From positions 1-10,759 of IMG/VR virus record IMGVR_UViG_2713896834_000012: a DNA stretch of 10,759 bases; one strand, given 5' to 3'. The position numbers and the translations under genes are program-made. Below are positions 2,448-10,759 of this stretch, in pieces; positions within the stretch are counted from its first letter, which is position 1; each line of letters opens with the position of its first letter. Below the pieces are notes generated by a model. It saw nothing but the letters and a program-made list of their open reading frames with translations. It was not told where the DNA came from and searched no databases. Source of the stretch: a virus (lineage: Duplodnaviria; Heunggongvirae; Uroviricota; Caudoviricetes).

Positions 2448-2907
2448 TCAACGTAAGGCGTTCCTCGATATGCTGGCGTGGTCAGAGGGAACTGATAACG
2501 GACGACAGAAAACCAGAAATCATGGTTATGACGTCATTGTTGGCGGAGAGCTATTCACTGATTACTCCGATCACCCTCGCAAACTTGTCACGCTAAACCC
2601 AAAACTCAAATCAACAGCAGCCGGACGTTACCAGCTTCTTTCCCGTTGGTGGGATGCCTACCGCAAGCAGCTTGGACTGAAAGACTTCTCTCCGAAAAGC
2701 CAGGACGCTGTGGCATTGCAGCAGATTAAGGAGCGTGGCGCTTTGCCGATGATTGATCGTGGTGATATTCGTCAGGCAATCGACCGTTGCAGCAATATCT
2801 GGGCTTCACTGCCTGGGGCTGGTTATGGTCAGTTCGAGCATAAGGCTGACAGCCTGATTGCAAAATTCAAAGAAGCAGGGGGAACGGTCAGAGAGATTGA
2901 GGTATGA
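2431..2907 (+). CDS. R: Endolysin R (lytic transglycosylase)
   Basis: 158-aa protein [39 protein letters not shown]... matches lambda R (from memory). Overlaps the 3' end of S by 17 nt. Confidence 0.95.
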
Positions 2908-3341
2908 GCAGAGTCACCGCGATTATCTCCGCTCTGGTTATCTGCATCATCGTCTGTCTGTCATGGGCTGTTAATCATTACCGTGATAACGCCATCGCCT
3001 ATAAAGAACAGCGCGATAAAGCCACGTACATCATCGCTGACATGCAGAAGCGTCAACGTGATGTAGCAGAACTCGACGCCAGATACACAAAGGAGCTTGC
3101 TGATGCTAACGCGACTATCGAAAGTCTCCGTGCTGATGTTTCTGCTGGGCGTAAGCGCCTGCAAGTCGCCGCCACCTGTGCAAGGTCAACGACCAGAGCC
3201 AGCGGCATGGGCGATGGAGAAAGCCCAGGACTTACAGCAGATGCTGAACTCAATTATTACCGTCTCCGAAGTGGAATCGACAAGATAACCGCGCAGGTTA
3301 ACTACCTGCAGGAATACATCAGGATGCAATGCCTGAAATGA
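2904..3341 (+). CDS. Rz: Inner-membrane spanin Rz (i-spanin)
   Basis: ATGA overlap with the R stop. N-terminus [31 protein letters not shown]... is lambda Rz-like with an N-terminal transmembrane helix and predicted coiled coil. The central region diverges from lambda. Confidence 0.85.
3103..3288 (+). CDS. Rz1: Outer-membrane lipoprotein spanin Rz1 (o-spanin), embedded in the +1 frame of Rz
   Basis: AGGAG (3091-3095) 7 nt upstream of ATG 3103. Signal peptide [20 protein letters not shown] with lipobox VSAC, followed by a proline-rich stretch ([13 protein letters not shown]). The track's 3097 start is a TTG in the same frame. Confidence 0.7.
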
Positions 3342-3377: not shown

Positions 3378-3653
3378 ATGACTAAGCTTTATCACCGCAT
3401 CTCAACTTTTCTCTCTGGTTGCTGGGCGTTTATCACGTCTATTTCGTTCGCCATCTTTAGTTTCGGTAGCACAGCGTGCTCGCTTAGTCGGGGTCTGTGG
3501 CGTGCTATTTCAGCACTAGCGCCGAAATTTTTACCTGAAAAGGCTGTTTGGCGAATTGTAGAGCGAATGTGTAGTGAGAGCGTTCGCGAGAAGATTAACG
3601 TATTTGGACGTCATCCTCGAAATACAGGCGCATTGTGCAGTCCGTTACTGTAG
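3378..3653 (+). CDS. Hypothetical protein, 91 aa, hydrophobic N-terminal segment (possible membrane protein)
   Basis: Strong RBS (AGGAG at 3367-3371, 6 nt before the ATG). Occupies the position where lambda carries bor, but on the opposite strand and with unrelated sequence. No family recognised. Confidence 0.45.
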   Translation: MTKLYHRISTFLSGCWAFITSISFAIFSFGSTACSLSRGLWRAISALAPKFLPEKAVWRIVERMCSESVREKINVFGRHPRNTGALCSPLL

Positions 3654-3654
3654 T

Positions 3655-3690
3655 CATTCCAAATCCCATCTACGGGTGGGCTTGATAATG
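3655..3690. repeat. Intergenic motif copy A (CATTCC...CTACGGGTGGGCTTGATAATG), imperfect hairpin
   Basis: Begins 2 nt after the stop of the 3378-3653 ORF. Shares CATTCC plus CTACrGrGTGG.CTT(T)GATAATG with 4319-4346. Confidence 0.5.
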
Positions 3691-3745
3691 AAACCGTGAT
3701 TTACATCCCCACAATCCGGGTATGTAAAAGATAGTTCAGGCGAGA

Positions 3746-3765
3746 ACAGATTTAACTAAATCTGT
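3746..3765. promoter_or_regulatory. Perfect palindrome ACAGATTTA-AC-TAAATCTGT (9-bp arms)
   Basis: Read directly from the sequence. Lies in the 283-nt non-coding gap between 3653 and 3937. Candidate dimeric protein-binding site or RNA hairpin. Confidence 0.4.
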
Positions 3766-3936
3766 GCACCACCAGTTGCGGCAGTACAGCGAAACAACCC
3801 AAGCCAGAAAGTGGGGAAATAACACTGGCAGCCACTGAAAGATGAACCTCCAGCCTTATGGCAAAAAAGATTCTTTGTGGTGGCGGACTGATGGAAAGAC
3901 ATCCTAATCAAGCAACCACTCTACAGGGTCATAATT

Positions 3937-4305
3937 ATGAACGACAAGCAAATTGAAAAAGAAATCGCAGCCAAGGGTAAGGCGGCTCGCGTTACTCCTG
4001 AACACATTGCCAGCATAATCGCCAGCGAACATTACTTTACGGCCGCTGATGGTGCTCGCTTTGCTCATGTGCAGAGAAGCGAAACATACAGCGTAAAAAT
4101 CCCAGACCAGCCTGACGAGCTGGAGCTGCTGACATTCTGCGTTCTGGTGCTGAAGAATGGCTTTACGGTCACCGGGGAAAGCGCCTGCGCCAGCCCAGAG
4201 AACTTCGATGAAGAAATCGGGCGCAAGATTGCTCGCCAGAATGCTGTAAACAAAATCTGGATGCTCGAAGGTTACTTGCTGAAGCAGAAGCTAAGCGAAC
4301 AGTAG
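3937..4305 (+). CDS. Phage protein of unknown function, 122 aa (possibly the gp49/Sf6-gp66-like family found upstream of terminase genes)
   Basis: Clean ORF located between the lysis cassette and the small terminase gene. Family assignment is tentative and from memory only. Confidence 0.55.
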   Translation: MNDKQIEKEIAAKGKAARVTPEHIASIIASEHYFTAADGARFAHVQRSETYSVKIPDQPDELELLTFCVLVLKNGFTVTGESACASPENFDEEIGRKIARQNAVNKIWMLEGYLLKQKLSEQ

Positions 4306-4318
4306 TTATTACAAAAGC

Positions 4319-4346
4319 CATTCCCTACAGAGTGGCTTTGATAATG
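4319..4346. repeat. Intergenic motif copy B (CATTCC-CTACAGAGTGGCTTTGATAATG), hairpin aaagcca/tggcttt
   Basis: Begins 14 nt after the stop of the 3937-4305 ORF. 7-bp stem (4314-4320 pairs with 4333-4339). Related to copy A and to the sequence just before the ATG at 3937 (CTACAGGGTCATAATTATG). Confidence 0.5.
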
Positions 4347-4408
4347 GCTTATACCCTACACGGGATAACTTAACTGATATCCCTTTTAACGGATAAACGG
4401 AGCCAACA

Positions 4409-4651
4409 ATGGCAGAGATTATTCCCATGACTGAAGAACAGAAATTCCAGCTAGAGATTTACAAACTGGTCATGAACCAGAACGCAGCCGCAGAGGAAGC
4501 ATTTCAATTTATTGGCACTGACGAACTGAAGCTTGAGCTATTCAAAATTCACTTCCAGTCAGGCGGCGCTAATTCAGATATCACGACCCGCACAATCGAA
4601 GCGGTGCGTAAATCGAAGGAAGCGTTAGACCTGTTCACTACCGGAGCATAA
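4409..4651 (+). CDS. Hypothetical small acidic phage protein, 80 aa
   Basis: GGAG RBS (4399-4402) 6 nt before the ATG. Its stop (4649-4651) lies 2 nt before the small terminase start, suggesting co-transcription. Confidence 0.5.
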   Translation: MAEIIPMTEEQKFQLEIYKLVMNQNAAAEEAFQFIGTDELKLELFKIHFQSGGANSDITTRTIEAVRKSKEALDLFTTGA

Positions 4652-4653
4652 AC

Positions 4654-5094
4654 ATGGCGCGCCCAACAAAGTATCAAGAGGCGTATGCCGAACAGGCACG
4701 CAAACTGTGCTTGCTGGGCTACACCGATGCAGAGCTTGCTGATTTCTTCGAAGTCAGTGAGTCAACTATTAACAAGTGGAAGCTCGATTATCCTAAGTTT
4801 TCGGAGTCCATAAAAAAGGGTAAGGCCGTCGCTGATGCAGAAGTTAGTGACCGTCTTTATCAACGCGCTATGGGCTTCGTGGCTCCAGACATCGATATTC
4901 GTGTTATTGAAAACAGAATTGTCGAAACTCCGCTTGAGAAGTATTACCCGCCTGATACAACAGCTGCCATCTTCTGGCTTAAGAACCGACAGAAGGATAA
5001 ATGGCGCGACAAGGTTGATCACGAGCTAACAGGCAAAGACGGCGGCGCAATTCAGATTGAAACATCACCGATGAGCACTCTATTCGGAAAATGA
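4654..5094 (+). CDS. Terminase small subunit (HTH DNA-binding), 146 aa
   Basis: N-terminal HTH-like segment (...GYTDAELADFFEVSESTINKWK...). Immediately precedes the large terminase subunit and is translationally coupled to it by an ATGA overlap at 5091-5094. Confidence 0.75.
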   Translation: MARPTKYQEAYAEQARKLCLLGYTDAELADFFEVSESTINKWKLDYPKFSESIKKGKAVADAEVSDRLYQRAMGFVAPDIDIRVIENRIVETPLEKYYPPDTTAAIFWLKNRQKDKWRDKVDHELTGKDGGAIQIETSPMSTLFGK

Positions 5095-6314
5095 CCTCGA
5101 TTAATCCTATCTTTGAACCGTTCATTGAGGCGCATCGCTACAAAGTCGCCAAAGGCGGTCGAGGTAGCGGTAAGTCATGGGCAATTGCTAGGCTGCTTGT
5201 TGAAGCGGCGCGTCGTCAGCCAGTGCGTATTCTCTGCGCTCGTGAACTGCAAAACAGTATCAGCGATTCGGTAATCCGGTTGCTTGAAGATACCATCGAG
5301 CGGGAAGGGTATTCGGCTGAGTTTGAAATTCAGCGTTCAATGATTCGTCATCTCGGTACGAATGCTGAATTCATGTTCTACGGCATCAAAAACAACCCGA
5401 CGAAGATTAAATCGCTCGAAGGCATTGATATCTGCTGGGTGGAAGAAGCGGAAGCGGTAACGAAGGAATCATGGGATATCCTGATACCAACCATCCGCAA
5501 GCCGTTTTCCGAAATATGGGTGAGCTTTAACCCGAAAAACATCCTCGACGATACCTATCAGCGATTCGTCGTAAATCCTCCCGATGATATTTGTCTGCTG
5601 ACAGTGAACTACACCGACAACCCGCACTTTCCTGAAGTTCTCCGTCTGGAGATGGAAGAGTGTAAACGCAGAAATCCGACACTGTATCGTCACATCTGGC
5701 TTGGTGAGCCAGTAAGCGCAAGTGATATGGCAATCATCAAACGTGAATGGCATGAAGCCGCAACCGATGCGCACAAGAAACTCGGATGGAAAGCGAAAGG
5801 CGCTGTTGTCTCTGCGCATGACCCATCAGATACAGGGCCAGATGCTAAAGGTTATGCATCGCGTCACGGTTCGGTAGTTAAGCGCATTGCTGAAGGTCTG
5901 CTGATGGACATCAACGAGGGTGCTGACTGGGCTACTTCGCTGGCGATTGAAGACGGTGCTGACCACTACCTGTGGGATGGCGATGGCGTTGGTGCCGGGC
6001 TACGCAGACAGACAACGGAAGCGTTCTCCGGCAAGAAAATCACCGCCACGATGTTCAAGGGCAGCGAATCGCCATTCGATGAAGATGCTCCGTATCAGGC
6101 CGGAGCATGGGCTGATGAAGTAGTACAGGGCGACAACGTTCGCACTATTGGCGATGTGTTCCGCAATAAGCGAGCGCAATTCTATTACGCGCTGGCTGAC
6201 AGGCTGTATCTAACCTGCAGAAGCTTGGTAAGGTTGCTGATAACGAGACTATTTCAAAACTTCAGTCCTATCGTGATGAGCTTGTTCGCAATGCTGGTCC
6301 AGATGGTCCGGTAA
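5091..6314 (+). CDS. Terminase large subunit (PBSX/Sf6-like family), C-terminally truncated or frame-disrupted; probable pseudogene
   Basis: Walker A motif KGGRGSGKS near the N-terminus, ATPase and RNase-H-like nuclease regions recognisable to about residue 372 (...RAQFYYALADRLYLT). The last about 35 residues (CRSLVRLLITRLFQNFSPIVMSLFAMLVQMVR) look like out-of-frame junk. No portal gene follows. Confidence 0.85.
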   Translation: MTSINPIFEPFIEAHRYKVAKGGRGSGKSWAIARLLVEAARRQPVRILCARELQNSISDSVIRLLEDTIEREGYSAEFEIQRSMIRHLGTNAEFMFYGIKNNPTKIKSLEGIDICWVEEAEAVTKESWDILIPTIRKPFSEIWVSFNPKNILDDTYQRFVVNPPDDICLLTVNYTDNPHFPEVLRLEMEECKRRNPTLYRHIWLGEPVSASDMAIIKREWHEAATDAHKKLGWKAKGAVVSAHDPSDTGPDAKGYASRHGSVVKRIAEGLLMDINEGADWATSLAIEDGADHYLWDGDGVGAGLRRQTTEAFSGKKITATMFKGSESPFDEDAPYQAGAWADEVVQGDNVRTIGDVFRNKRAQFYYALADRLYLTCRSLVRLLITRLFQNFSPIVMSLFAMLVQMVR

Positions 6315-6997
6315 ATCTGGATTTGAAGCAATTAAGCGATCTGCGCAGCCAGTTCAGAATGGACGTGAAGGGTGAGCGACCAGTGTTACCAAACCGTTCC
6401 GATGCTGCCATTCAGCGCGTTTACAAGGCAATGACTGACGATATCAATGGTGCCATTGGTCAGAATCTTGGCAACGATACTCTCCGTAAATATCAGCAGG
6501 CCAATGCCGTCTACGCTGACGAAGCGGCGAAGCTAAAGAATACCAGGCTGAAGAATGTTCTCATGAAAGGCGACCTGACGCCGGAAGTTGTCAACAACAT
6601 GCTATTCAGCAAGAACAAATCGGAAATTAAGACGCTGTATAACTCAGTTGGTCGTGTTGGCAGGGCGCAAATGCGCAATGGCATCATTGGAAAGGCGATG
6701 GAGAAATCTGGCGGATCCCCTGACCAGTTCCTTCGGCAGCTTAACATCCTGCAAAACCAGACTGGCATCACATTTAAGGGGCAGGACGCTGCTTATCTGA
6801 AAGGATTGAAAAAATACCTTCAGTCCACTCAGCAGGCAGCAAAAGCGGCAGTAACAACACCAACAGGGCAGCAAACCATCCCGTTCATTATCGGGTATGG
6901 GACGGCAACGAACCCGGCGACAACTGGCGCAGCAGTAAGCTACGGACTTCTTACTCGCGCCTATGAGAGCGAACCATTCAGAAATGCAATGCTCTGA
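6200..6997 (+). pseudogene. 3' fragment of a virion structural gene (possibly the last ejection/injection protein upstream of the tailspike), lacking its 5' end
   Basis: Frame +2 is open from 6200 (preceded by TGA at 6197-6199) to the stop at 6995-6997, with no ATG until far downstream. The track's 6323 start is a TTG. The translation is Q/N/K/A/G-rich (QAVSNLQKLGKVADNETISKLQSYRDELV...). Gene identity is inferred from synteny only. Confidence 0.4.
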
Positions 6998-7217
6998 ATG
7001 GCAAATACCCCACGCGGATCAACAGCGTTTGAGAAAGCCTTGCAGCAGGCACAAAAGGCAATTAACGCGCTGACCCAAGGCGCTAAGTCTGATGCGTTGT
7101 CTGAATAGTTTCGAAAACACCAGGAACGTGCAAAAACCAAATATGTAGAACGCAATATTCAACAGATCTCTTTGCATAGACTCATCTCATAATTAACAGA
7201 TCATAACTGACATTAGT

Positions 7218-7253
7218 GCAATGCCGGGCAAGTTGCATCTTGTCCGGCATTGC
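7218..7253 (+). promoter_or_regulatory. Very stable 15-bp stem-loop immediately upstream of the tailspike RBS
   Basis: 7218-7232 pairs with 7239-7253 (14 Watson-Crick pairs plus one G-U), loop ttgcat. No U-tract follows. The tailspike SD (GGAG, 7261-7264) lies 8 nt downstream. Confidence 0.4.
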
Positions 7254-7272
7254 TACGTCCGGAGCAAATTAA

Positions 7273-9453
7273 ATGACAGACATTACAGCCAATGTTGTAG
7301 TAAGCATGCCTTCGCAACTCTTCACTATGGCGCGTTCTTTTAAAGCCGTAGCCAATGGCAAAATTTATATCGGTAAAATTGACACTGACCCAGTAAATCC
7401 TGAAAACCAGATTCAGGTTTATGTGGAGAACGAAGACGGCTCTCACGTTCCTGTTTCGCAACCAATCATCATTAACGCTGCTGGTTACCCTGTATATAAC
7501 GGACAGATTGCCAAATTCGTTACCGTGCAAGGCCATTCTATGGCTGTTTATGACGCGTATGGTGCACAGCAATTCTATTTTCCGAATGTACTTAAGTACG
7601 ACCCTGCCGCACTAAAATATGACTTGGAAGCTCCGTATGGCATGTCGATTATTGGGGAGTTCGAATCGGTAGCGGACTTGCAATCCTTCTCCCAGTTGTC
7701 CCTGATTGATAACGGGGAGAGAGTGTCGGTAAAAAGCTTTCATGCTGGAAGAGGTGTTGGTGGTGGTTATTTCAGATGGTTGGCCACAAGCACGCTGGCT
7801 GATGACGGATTTTCTGTCATCAAACCAACCGCTGTTACTGGTTCCGGGCGATGGGTAAACGTGAAGAGAGGTGCGCTTACTCCACCAGAGTGTGGGGCTG
7901 TTCCTGATGATTCTACTTTCGACAGTGCTACCGGACTTTCAAACTGGGCTACTCAAAACCGCTGCATTGGTAGTCCTGGTGTGTTTAGATCATCAACTGG
8001 GATAGTATTTACAGGCAGTAATCCATGGGTTACTGCCGATCGTATGACGATTGAATATACTGCACCAGAGATTAACGGCGTTATGGTAACCACTAACGAC
8101 CAGACTATATTTCAAGTTGAGGGACTGGAAGTTAAAAACGTTAGTGCGACACCATCTACGGCTGCCGCAACTGCAAATGGATTTAGAATGATTGGGCTTA
8201 AGCAGGCATTTGTTAGGCGCTGCAGAAGCATCGGATGGAAAAATGCAGGGATATTCTTCCAGAGCTGCAGGCAGTGGGAAGCTATTGATAATTTATGCTG
8301 GCTTAATGATTGGGACCTAACCAATACATTTGCCTCCGGTGGGGATATCGTTTCCTACACTGGAACGCCAGGCGCTTCAAAGGGAGGGAAAATAATTGGT
8401 AATTTACTGCTTTCCGATGCAAGCCAAGGAATTAACGTAAACGCACTGTCTGCTGATAGGGAAATCATCATTGCAAATAACACGATCCTTACCTATAACA
8501 CTGATTTCACAACGAAAGATTTCTCTCTCATTAATAAAAGACATGGTATTGAGTTTGGGTACAAAAGTAATCAGACTTACGGAGGCTCGATACTTATTGC
8601 AAACAATATTATTCGTGATACGAACTGGACTGGTATTTACCGTTCTGGTGGAGCGGATGGTTCTGTTTCTTATCCACCATCAATGATTCATGGCAATTTG
8701 ATCCATAACGTTGGTATGAAAATTGATGCATCCAATATCTCTGGTGGTATTCTAATTGGTGATATAGTTGATGGTGACATACTATCTAACAATATTGTTT
8801 CTGGTTTTGGTCAATTATCATCTGGTGCCTATCGGATACAGGATTCGGTTGGAAGCGGTAAGCTCACAATGAACAACAATGTAGACTTTGATAGCAAGGG
8901 GTCAGGTATATACATAACTGGTGAGGCTAATGGTGTGGTTGTTAACGGTCACAGAACTGTCAGAGCTTCAGGTTATAGCGTATTCCTTGCCCCCGTATCA
9001 GGAGCTACAGTTTTTGGCGATCACGTACTAAATAACATCGTGGTTGAAAGGACTACGGATGGTTACGGTGTTGTATTTGCTTCAGGCGCTGCGACAACAA
9101 GCTCTCTGAATAATCTAAATGCAAAAGGAACCTTCACAAACGCCACTACTAACTCAGCTGTATATGTGGCAGGAACACCTTCAAATGCAATAATTATCGG
9201 AGGCGTCATTAAAGGGTTTGCGTATGGAGTCTGGTGTCAGTCTTATGTCGACACTACAATCCAACTTCCATGGGGTGGCATAACCTTCATTGGTACAATA
9301 AATGCTTTCAGGCTGGCAAGGACAACAGGAACCGCAAATGCGTTTGTAAATCCTAATTTTTTCTATGGCGTAACTAATAGATTCTCAAATGGTGGCACAG
9401 GTACCAGTAATGGAGCAGAAAGATTATTGGTTAATGGGGCTGTTGTGGCATAA
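7273..9453 (+). CDS. Tailspike protein: P22-type N-terminal head-binding domain plus right-handed beta-helix receptor-binding (probable glycanase) domain, 726 aa
   Basis: N-terminus [13 protein letters not shown]...[27 protein letters not shown]...[13 protein letters not shown]...NVLKYDP matches the P22/Sf6/HK620 tailspike head-binding domain (from memory). The remainder has beta-helix-like repeats ([29 protein letters not shown]). GGAG RBS 8 nt upstream. Confidence 0.9.
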
Positions 9454-9475: not shown

Positions 9476-10759
9476 CATAAGCGCTAACTTAAGGGTTGAA
9501 CCATCTGAAGAATGCGACGCCTCGGTGCCTCGTTAAGACGATGCCTCGCGTTCTTCAATTGCGTTTTGTAGGCTGTCAGGGATACTGTCCCACGAATGGC
9601 CACCTGTAAGCTCCAGATGACCATTTTTGTTATTCTCCACAACGAGTTAGTTCTTCTTTTCGGATCCGGCACTTCTGGGGGGGAAATCCAGCGATGGCTG
9701 GATTATGTCGTCAATTAAAAATGCGGCGAGTAGATTAGCAAATATCCACGCTTTCGCGAGTTCAGGTTCCTTTGCACGCAAAGCATCCAGGTGCAGCAAA
9801 CTTTTGAGCCGCTTAAAAGCCAGTTCAATTTGCCATCGCAGACGGTAACAATCAGCCACTTGCTCTGCTGAATATTCATCTTCCGGTAATGATGTTAGCA
9901 ATAGCACATGGCCCGCTGCTTCCAGCGTTTCCGCCTGAACTACTCGTCCTTTTCGACGATTCTCGCTGAGCAGTCGGGTTTTACTGATTAATGCTTTTTC
10001 GGGAGGAAGTGATACGGCAATGAGACGTGCCGGAAAGGGAGCTCCGGCTTTTTTATTACCTGAATTGCCTATCATTACAGTGGTTTCACCGTTCTTACCG
10101 CAATCCAGCCCGCGCAGAAAACCCATCATGTCAAAGCGCATTCCTTCTGCAGTTAACCAGCGCAATCCTCGCCAGTGAACCCGGACGATATAATCAGCTT
10201 CTCCAAAAGCAAGTGAGCGGATACATTCGGGACGCGAACCGAATCCCCGGTCAGCAATGCGTATCTCGTCTGCCGTTTGCGCAAATCGGTCCAGCCGTTC
10301 AGCGTCTCTGCTGTCGGTTAGCTCAAAATCAGTGAACTGACAGGTATGAGGATCATATCCCATATGTAGTCGCCATTCAGCGCTGCCGCCCCCGGGCGCA
10401 CTGATTGCTGTTCCATCGACAAGACGCAATCTCTTTCCGCTTGTACAACCCGTAACTGCGGCGCGTACAGCAAGTGTTTGTGCGGCAAGTATGCCAAACC
10501 AGTCGGCGGCATTCCGCAGCCGCTTCAGGAGAGCCACGTCAGATAATGTTGCAACGTCATGGAGCTGAGCCCATGCAGTGACTTCACGTAATGACATCCC
10601 CCCGGGGCCGTAAGCCAGCCCCAGACGTAGCAGAGTTGCAGCATCACGAATTTCGCGGCGGCGGGTTAGAGCCCCGGCATTACGTGCCGAAGTATCCAGT
10701 TCTTCGGGCTTACCAATATGGGCCAGAATTGCTGACCAGTTATCGTGAGAGTAATTCAT
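9476..10759 (-). mobile_element. IS186 (IS4 family), partial; the far end lies beyond the window
   Basis: Terminal inverted repeat CATAAGCGCTAACTTAAGGGTTG begins at about 9476. It is flanked by GGGGGGTGTCACCCC (9462-9476), the G-run/C-run target type IS186 is known to prefer. Contains the complete insL-type transposase. Boundary is accurate to about 1 nt. Confidence 0.9.
9647..10759 (-). CDS. insL: IS186 transposase (IS4 family, DDE), 370 aa
   Basis: Protein MNYSHDNWSAILAHIGKPEELDTSARNAG... with the IS4-family motif YRLRWQIELAFKRLK. The start codon is the last 3 nt of the window (10759-10757), stop at 9649-9647. Confidence 0.95.
   Translation of the reverse strand: MNYSHDNWSAILAHIGKPEELDTSARNAGALTRRREIRDAATLLRLGLAYGPGGMSLREVTAWAQLHDVATLSDVALLKRLRNAADWFGILAAQTLAVRAAVTGCTSGKRLRLVDGTAISAPGGGSAEWRLHMGYDPHTCQFTDFELTDSRDAERLDRFAQTADEIRIADRGFGSRPECIRSLAFGEADYIVRVHWRGLRWLTAEGMRFDMMGFLRGLDCGKNGETTVMIGNSGNKKAGAPFPARLIAVSLPPEKALISKTRLLSENRRKGRVVQAETLEAAGHVLLLTSLPEDEYSAEQVADCYRLRWQIELAFKRLKSLLHLDALRAKEPELAKAWIFANLLAAFLIDDIIQPSLDFPPRSAGSEKKN

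Follow-up and report, generated by a model that had tools for sequence, protein, structure and literature searches.

Several described systems resemble the hairpin element treated here. The repetitive extragenic palindromic (REP) elements of Escherichia coli operons reportedly act as stabiliser hairpins (Newbury 1987), and intercistronic C(UUCG)G hairpins are reported from phage T4 (Tuerk 1988). The T7 R1.1-type sites and lambda sib are likewise phage hairpins, located between cistrons or at a 3' end and carrying an internal loop, which determine how stable the upstream message is. Other related systems include: (i) hairpins of the selective RNA processing and stabilisation (SRPS) concept (PMC4423207, PMC8219983), (ii) the boundary sequences (bsq) of HK620 (Clark et al. 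2001) and Sf6 (Casjens et al. 2004), a concept also cited in PMC3029335, and (iii) the attC sites of integrons. The window analysed here is the whole 10,759-nucleotide (nt) stretch of IMG/VR record IMGVR_UViG_2713896834_000012, and covers the late region of a prophage of the P22-like (Lederbergvirus) type. Two repeats of this window belong to one RNA hairpin family, here named HP1, that is unannotated in any database or record examined and is probably of the same general kind as the known stabiliser hairpins. The two copies are:

3655-3690, + strand: HP1 copy A, CAUUC CA AAUCCCAUC UACG GGUGGGCUU GA UAAUG, assigned by covariance model, degraded.
4307-4346, + strand: HP1 copy B, UAUUA CA AAAGCCAUUC CCUACA GAGUGGCUUU GA UAAUG, assigned by covariance model, intact.

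The covariance model of HP1 is built from 22 ungapped variants of relatives, a set pre-filtered for pairing. It matches copy A at 3652-3693 (49.9 bits, E 6e-11, two non-canonical pairs flagged) and copy B at 4304-4349 (39.6 bits, E 4e-8), and it finds no third match in the window or the rest of the Sf6 or HK620 genomes and none in lambda. The copies lie 652 nt apart and differ in their stems, each beginning 1 nt past a TAG stop codon (3651-3653 and 4303-4305, respectively). Copy B folds into 8 + 10 base pairs (bp) with a minimum free energy (MFE) of -20.1 kcal/mol (z -5.65; 0 of 200 shuffles as good), a pairing that can be extended to 4304-4349, where it takes in the AG of the stop codon; the minus strand of copy B is weaker at -13.9 kcal/mol. 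Copy A folds weakly (MFE -12.9 kcal/mol, z -2.3, compared to -18.8 kcal/mol for its HK620 orthologue), as two substitutions relative to the family consensus CAUUA CA AAGCCCAUC break pairs.

A preliminary description of the window, made from its letters, had proposed a repeated intergenic motif at four places. Two of these are related elements far beyond chance, by the E values given above, while the other two (discussed with the neighbouring palindromes below) are not members. The 3' part of the proposed motif, CTAC..GTGG.CTT.GATAATG, is correctly aligned. By contrast, its 5' end is out of register: the model places CAUUCC of copy A (3655-3660) opposite UAUUAC of copy B (4307-4312), and the CATTCC that both copies contain is a coincidence, being a mutated outer stem in copy A (CATTAC>CATTCC) and inner stem plus loop in copy B. 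The elements had been set 2-14 nt after the preceding stop codons; copy B begins 1-2 nt after 4303-4305, not 14 nt. The aaagcca/tggcttt hairpin drawn for copy B is real and forms an incomplete part of the fold of 8 + 10 bp. The extended architecture, the true register and the role at mosaic joints had been missed.

Members of the HP1 family are 35-40 nt long with 14-15 bp in all and consist of: (i) an AU-rich outer stem of 5 bp, (C/U)AUUA...UAAU(G/A), in which AUU(A/G)/(U/C)AAU is lengthened by a closing C-G, U.G or U-A pair, (ii) an invariant 2x2 internal loop, CA/GA, and (iii) a freely covarying inner stem of 9-10 bp with a loop of 3-6 nt. The copy A orthologue of Sf6, HK620 and N7 reads CATTACAAAGCC(C/T)ATCTAC(G/A)GGTGGGCTTGATAATG; HK620 and N7 have GGTTATTGCAGAGGCCATTCAATGAGTGGTCTCGACAATGG where the window has copy B, and the orthologues and this replacement have the common fold ((((..(((((((((....)))))))))..)))). 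In the 22-variant alignment, 99% of the cells are paired and 6 of the 14 pairs change on both sides, a result reached by 0 of 500 shuffles and approached by no slid register. Since the variants had been filtered for pairing, two unbiased tests were run. The first is a centre-free scan for CATTACAAAG-N16-24-CTTGATAATG in one genome per bacterial species with the central 16 nt unconstrained. At N = 16, the 39 matches form 5.77 of 6 possible central pairs and include 28 distinct centres with at least 10 different stems, compared to 1.0-3.2 pairs for chance matches of other lengths (two N = 17 matches form 5.5). The listed record titles are mostly Enterobacterales, with a few metagenome bins labelled otherwise.

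Pattern-based samples of this type fix the basal arms by design; the exception is the second test, in which loci were gathered via the major tail protein (phrog_853) of one prophage group without consulting the hairpin. Of these 80 loci (72-100% protein identity), HP1 directly follows the stop codon in 76 and is lacking from three, while the remaining locus is truncated. The basal 11 + 11 nt are 100% conserved in the tail loci, compared to 0.69-0.77 at the third codon positions of the flanking genes, while the hairpin centre varies by wobble or compensatory changes. HP1 is thus a conserved family under purifying selection and not a decaying remnant of a small repeated element, as had been one of the earlier suggestions, though copy A is degraded here. 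In the three tail loci without HP1 (L267-L269), the sequence past the major tail stop appears to encode a further immunoglobulin-like (Ig-like) domain, which could be added by read-through or frameshift.

The strand on which HP1 acts is indicated by 60 distinct elements collected with a strand-neutral filter. The gene-sense strand of these elements has 87 G.U pairs and 6 A.C oppositions; thus, the opposite strand would carry 87 mismatches. UNCG loops, which are exceptionally stable in RNA, are found in 28 of the 60 elements (mostly closed by C-G) compared to an expected ~1.6%, or ~30 times chance. The excess of G.U pairs and the enrichment of UNCG loops are signatures of an RNA hairpin in the late transcript, folded on the sense strand, and folds of the minus strand are weaker. 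A transcription signal, in which HP1 is a promoter, an intrinsic terminator or a pause site for RNA polymerase not modified by Q, is by comparison highly improbable. While GATAAT is similar to a -10 hexamer and some copies adjoin true terminators, neither window copy receives a promoter or terminator call, the spacing of TTACAA to GATAAT (21 nt in copy A and 25 nt in copy B) varies in the family, and no sense-strand U tract follows the stem. A sigma-70 promoter is rejected as the hexamers are not 16-18 nt apart, in agreement with the preliminary description, which saw no obvious promoter at either copy. An intrinsic terminator is similarly rejected: the G+C-rich stem-loop is present (inner stem of 9-10 bp, -12.9 to -20.1 kcal/mol), while the U tract (at least 5 U in 8) is replaced by GAUAAUG.

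HP1 is widespread. A blastn search with one variant detects it in 147 phage records, which include P22 relatives, HK97, ES18, mEp phages, Shiga toxin (Stx1/Stx2) phages and phages of Enterobacter and Klebsiella. HK022 carries the copy-B module, and the species scan adds Enterobacter, Xenorhabdus, Pantoea, Serratia, Morganella, Budvicia, Leclercia and others. No annotation lies under the match in 57 of the 60 listed rows, and the remaining 3 have only 'hypothetical protein'. Sf6, HK620 and the window have exactly two HP1 each, all oriented with the late operon and located between Rz and the small terminase gene. P22 has a single copy (NC_002371 40308-40350) that overlaps the annotated 'orf25'. 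This open reading frame (ORF) of P22 (NC_002371 40329-40406; L198 1330-1407) starts in the HP1 loop and continues across both the 3' arm and the palindrome behind it; it was probably annotated in error, and HP1 flags it as an example of the small annotated ORFs that are probable artefacts over RNA structure.

Two genomic settings are common for HP1: (i) after accessory genes (Rha, KilA-associated hkbL, Sf6 gene 65/66, orf91 and others) that lie between the lysis and packaging genes, and (ii) past the major tail protein gene, 3-5 nt ahead of the Shine-Dalgarno (SD) sequence of the gene that follows. Locus L107 has a terminator-type hairpin after the major capsid gene and HP1 after the major tail gene. 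In locus L188 (5565-5625), the HP1 3' arm is partly tandem-duplicated between tail genes, with GCCCTTGATAATG occurring twice, 12 nt apart. HP1 starts no more than 10 nt from the stop codon of a same-strand ORF (at least 50 codons) in 53 of the 74 distinct upstream contexts, with a mode of 1 nt, and all three stop codons are represented ahead of it.

This proximity to stop codons raises an alternative of low probability, in which HP1 acts on translation by coupling or insulating the neighbouring cistrons, by freeing the downstream SD or by being opened by the terminating ribosome. Consistent with such a role, HP1 starts 0-2 nt after the stop codon in most contexts and the SD lies 3-8 nt past its 3' end in the tail and terS contexts. 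However, the next start codon is more than 100 nt away in 26 of the 74 contexts and absent from 11, the SD is not inside the stem, and the terminal AUG opens ORFs of only 1-30 codons in 66 of the 70 listed copies. The ATG of GATAATG is thus rejected as a start codon, the other four listed copies having a better internal start after an SD.

Based on its structure, strand, conservation, position and mosaic joints, HP1 is proposed, with moderate confidence, to stabilise and insulate mRNA, either between cistrons or at 3' ends, and to double as a recombination joint. Polymerase modified by Q ignores terminators, and late product ratios must therefore be set after transcription. Late transcripts antiterminated by Q, and the moron transcripts within them, would contain HP1 in the sense orientation, with the hairpin forming immediately 3' of the stop codon. 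The very stable inner stem, often capped by UNCG, would block 3'-to-5' exonucleases and mark a processing boundary. This would stabilise the upstream cistron, whether it is the major tail protein gene or an accessory one, and keep its structure separate from that of the downstream RNA. The basal 10-nt arms, being invariant across unrelated contexts, would provide a homology patch for cassette exchange, insertion and deletion between lambdoid phages.

HP1 has the feature expected of a stabiliser hairpin in that a stable sense-strand stem-loop is located just 3' of a cistron within an operon. A transcript of P22 offers indirect support. A 2026 small-RNA study of P22 infection reports ten abundant phage RNAs (PMC13397905) and lists P22G, a 204-nt sense RNA that accumulates in infection (PMC13397905, Table 2). 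P22G matches NC_002371 40122-40325 exactly, from the last 57 nt of rha to ...GGUUAUUGCAGAGGCCAU; thus, an abundant RNA extends over the end of rha as far as the hairpin, and its own 3' end, which was set by small-RNA read coverage and is possibly technical, falls in the 5' arm of the HP1 of P22. Besides a binding site for a late regulator and a repeat remnant, the preliminary description had listed an element for RNA processing or stability, an option that is supported in kind by a selected sense-strand hairpin at gene 3' ends and by a P22 RNA that ends inside it. Poor conservation and a lack of transcript ends, which had been named beforehand as evidence that would tell against the motif, are not what is found, as the motif is conserved in relatives and P22G ends there.

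Several observations weigh against the stabiliser and insulator proposal. P22G ends in the 5' arm of HP1, not at the 3' foot expected of a simple exonuclease barrier. A passive barrier would leave the invariance of the AU-rich base and the CA/GA loop unexplained, and every ribosome that terminates 1 nt upstream has to open the lower helix. In the window, copy A is degraded and the element that hosts it is a defective prophage; thus, function may be lost at the window copies.

The invariant base and CA/GA loop suggest recognition by a specific factor. HP1 may accordingly be an active recognition or cleavage site for a conserved endoribonuclease or RNA-binding protein of the Enterobacterales, a possible but unlikely alternative. 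The candidates are RNase III, which would cut at the CA/GA loop as at T7 intercistronic sites, and a factor that would read the AU-rich base. At least 10 unrelated inner stems share the basal helix and the CA/GA loop, which are also kept in lineages with ~63% identical flanking DNA, while the broad host range and varied phage types favour a host factor. For RNase III, the layout of upper stem, internal loop and lower stem resembles that of T7 R1.1-type sites. RNase III also processes lambda late RNA (Daniels et al. 1988, as cited in PMC7547250). By contrast, HP1 has only 14-15 bp in total, with 5 bp below the internal loop (8 in copy B), compared to ~2 helical turns of double-stranded RNA around the cut and ~12 positions on each side of it for E. 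coli RNase III motifs (PMC6212723), and the P22G end is not at the internal loop.

Like the REP, SRPS and T4 hairpins, HP1 is stable, has no U tract and is located just 3' of a cistron in polycistronic RNA. The UNCG loops that are frequent in HP1 (28/60) are shared with the T4 C(UUCG)G hairpins, and its position behind the gene of an abundant structural protein, the major tail protein, is a further likeness. HP1 differs from these stabilisers in having an invariant AU-rich base and a fixed CA/GA loop, in abutting the stop codon and in being common to unrelated cassettes across many phages. Unlike REP elements, HP1 is without flanking GTAG and is not a host chromosomal repeat. With T7 R1.1-type sites and lambda sib, HP1 shares a layout with an internal loop and a location in a long read-through transcript, but it has 14-15 bp compared to ~20 or more and no sequence similarity to them. 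A cmscan of the whole window against Rfam release 15 (E<=1) returns only a spurious microRNA match at 7214-7257 and nothing at 3655-4370. No description was found in the literature on the sequence or on lambdoid late-operon hairpins, the subscription-only Clark 2001, Casjens 2004 and Juhala 2000 being outside its scope, and the epsilon34 genome paper does not mention HP1. The element is now named and has a searchable model that applies to P22, HK97, HK022, ES18, Sf6, HK620, Stx phages and many Enterobacterales prophages, and it offers a handle on how relative expression is set in Q-antiterminated late operons, where terminators fail.

HP1 is also located at the edges of mosaic homology. In a phage collection that was not selected for the hairpin, matches to most related genomes begin at 3649-3655 of the window, where copy A has its 5' edge. 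Similarly, homology starts cluster at 3650-59 and 4300-09 in a local BLAST against fetched loci, which were partly picked for the hairpin. Among 114 hairpins, 59 upstream and 57 downstream sequence classes occur in 76 combinations, and one downstream leader is paired with seven different upstream genes. At the position of a single hairpin in Sf6, HK620 carries an inserted hkbK-hkbL cassette that is flanked by CATTACAAA on both sides. In locus L009, hkbL is joined straight to the hkbM leader via one hairpin, a deletion between two hairpins, and in L070 (1200-1660) foreign DNA is joined inside the HP1 loop. HK620 and L070 are examples of cassette insertion into the hairpin. The several junction positions suggest homology-driven or illegitimate exchange rather than a site-specific enzyme. 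A role as recombination joint is well supported as a consequence of HP1. In the HK620 locus (L005 17941-18890), a truncated HP1 5' arm (CATTACAAA) precedes an intrinsic terminator, with the KilA-type cassette next.

The same joints raise the alternative that HP1 functions only as DNA, as a boundary sequence, linker or miniature mobile element, with the hairpin incidental or kept by palindrome correction. Mosaic joints at both edges and even inside the element, the CATTACAAA direct repeat that flanks the HK620 insert and the deletion between two hairpins in L009 would fit this alternative. It is nonetheless improbable, as (i) the strand asymmetry (87 G.U vs 6 A.C) and UNCG enrichment are signatures of RNA, (ii) the persistent CA/GA mismatch is opposite to the outcome of palindrome correction, (iii) the covarying centres show selection for pairing, and (iv) no transposase or integrase is associated with the element and its joints lie at several positions rather than at a specific site. 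An IS200/IS605-like or REP-like element was rejected for its lack of core sites or associated enzymes and for the several junction positions, and a DNA site for a dimeric protein is argued against by the variable arm spacing and covarying centre. A CRISPR (clustered regularly interspaced short palindromic repeats) repeat was also rejected, there being no array and two copies with different stems; the resemblance to the tail of the I-E repeat (GAUAA..AAACCG) is limited to a few bases.

Similarly to the bsq elements, HP1 is short, conserved and located at the edges of homology blocks. However, it is not among the bsq2-bsq7 of Sf6, of which the nearest, bsq7, is inside Rz. Unlike them, HP1 is an RNA structure that covaries and appears to have a function in its own right. 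While bsq features are annotated in the Sf6 record, nothing is annotated at 37835-37870 or 38499-38538. Like attC, HP1 is located at the 3' end of promoterless cassettes and forms an imperfect hairpin in which the outer boxes are conserved, the centre is variable and central bases are left unpaired. By contrast, HP1 is 35-40 nt rather than 57-141 nt, has no GTTRRRY/RYYYAAC core or integron integrase, has crossovers at several positions and is folded on the mRNA-sense strand with RNA-type loops. An attC identity was rejected as the arms CATTACAAAG / CTTGATAATG are not RYYYAAC / GTTRRRY and no integron integrase is found in the window or related genomes.

A bolder and rather doubtful possibility is that HP1 is a 'cassette end' signal of the lambdoid phages of Enterobacterales that is read sequence-specifically, such that a factor would cut or protect late RNA at every cassette boundary and the same arms would provide the long-postulated linker homology. 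If so, the invariant (C/U)AUUA-CA...GA-UAAU(G/A) base would be recognised by a factor of the host or the phage, and accessory genes would move between phages with their own hairpins in an integron-like cassette economy without an integrase. HP1 is, in addition, a handle on the origin of lambdoid mosaic junctions, whether from short conserved sequences (the 'linker' idea of Susskind-Botstein and Clark) or random illegitimate events. As a defined site of 35-40 nt, it makes both this question and that of late expression open to mutation.

The genes of the window that surround the two HP1 copies, together with a conserved non-coding block, are as follows:

1067-1690: Q antiterminator.
2124-2447: holin.
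2431-2907: endolysin.
2904-3341: Rz.
3378-3653, + strand: orf91, PHROG 34701, function not assigned; its stop codon adjoins copy A.
3779-3903, + strand: non-coding block of 125 nt, homologue of the P22G body, >95% conserved.
3937-4305, + strand: orf122, Gp49/Sf6 gene 66 family (PF13876, Pfam E 7e-37); its stop codon adjoins copy B.
4409-4651: DUF2560 (hkbM) gene.
4654-5094: small terminase gene.
From 5091: large terminase gene.
7273-9453: tailspike head-binding protein.

Only a few relatives (N7, HK140) carry orf91. Together, orf122 and copy B form a cassette-like unit that is missing from HK620, N7, P22 and HK97, based on the comparison with HK620 and N7 and on 25 contexts. The P22G body is 96% identical to window 3779-3903, and the 125-nt block occurs in 25 distinct contexts with a common sharp right edge at GACATC. 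In P22, HK620, HK97 and N7 the block is followed directly by HP1, while orf122 intervenes in the window. The block has no marked fold (z -0.38), and a small ORF within it was rejected by inspection, its start and sense codons not being conserved. DNA related to window 3640-3940, which includes copy A and the block, is found in ~1/5 of complete E. coli genomes.

The two places that the preliminary description had counted as related or partial copies of the motif, and a further palindrome, are as follows:

3919-3939, + strand: CTACAGGGTCATAATTATG, the 5' leader and ribosome-binding site (RBS) region of orf122, not an HP1 member.
4349-4368, + strand: HP2, UUAU(A)CCC UACAC GGGAUAA, MFE -4.4 kcal/mol, z -2.96.
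4378-4395, + strand: HP3, UAUCC CUUUUAAC GGAUA, read from sequence.

CTACAGGGTCATAATTATG has no covariance-model match even at E<=10, is unstructured (-1.8 kcal/mol, z +0.47) and includes a 9-mer that occurs at chance frequency (5 found, 4.2 expected); it is at most a decayed HP1 relic. CCCTACACGGG at 4354-4364 is the top of HP2, a different hairpin that belongs to a second hairpin or palindrome family, TATCCC..GGGATA. HP3 is a weaker second tandem copy of the HP2-type palindrome and lies just ahead of the RBS of the DUF2560 gene. Of the 194 HP2-type regular-expression matches in 3.3 Mb, 41 fall within 70 nt 3' of an HP1, a region in which the TATCCC(C)-loop-(G)GGGATA(A) motif is ~88-fold enriched. 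The palindrome is often found in tandem pairs after HP1, just upstream of the packaging genes, in several lineages; examples include L022, L148, L191, L088, L100 and P22 (L198 1375-1405). The HP2-type motif is conserved in sequence rather than covarying, which would suit either a palindrome bound by a protein or a hairpin formed in RNA.

The closest E. coli chromosome carries the element beside sbcB, with its integrase a pseudogene, its terminase truncated and most of its morphogenesis genes missing. The window is thus assigned to a defective prophage, and this defectiveness may explain the decay of copy A. In E. coli KBN10P04869, the integrase is a pseudogene and the early region is missing. 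Only a fragment separates the truncated large terminase gene of the window from the tailspike gene (5091-7273). The fragment, which is called a lytic-transglycosylase-domain pseudogene in L280, lies at 6323-6997 in the window and is without a Pfam match. A DDE transposase is located at the window end (9647-10759 region). At 7216-7253, 20 nt upstream of the tailspike gene, a near-perfect inverted repeat of 18 nt with zero spacer (-29.9 kcal/mol, z -4.9) and no U tract after it is the site of the spurious Rfam match, to MIR399.

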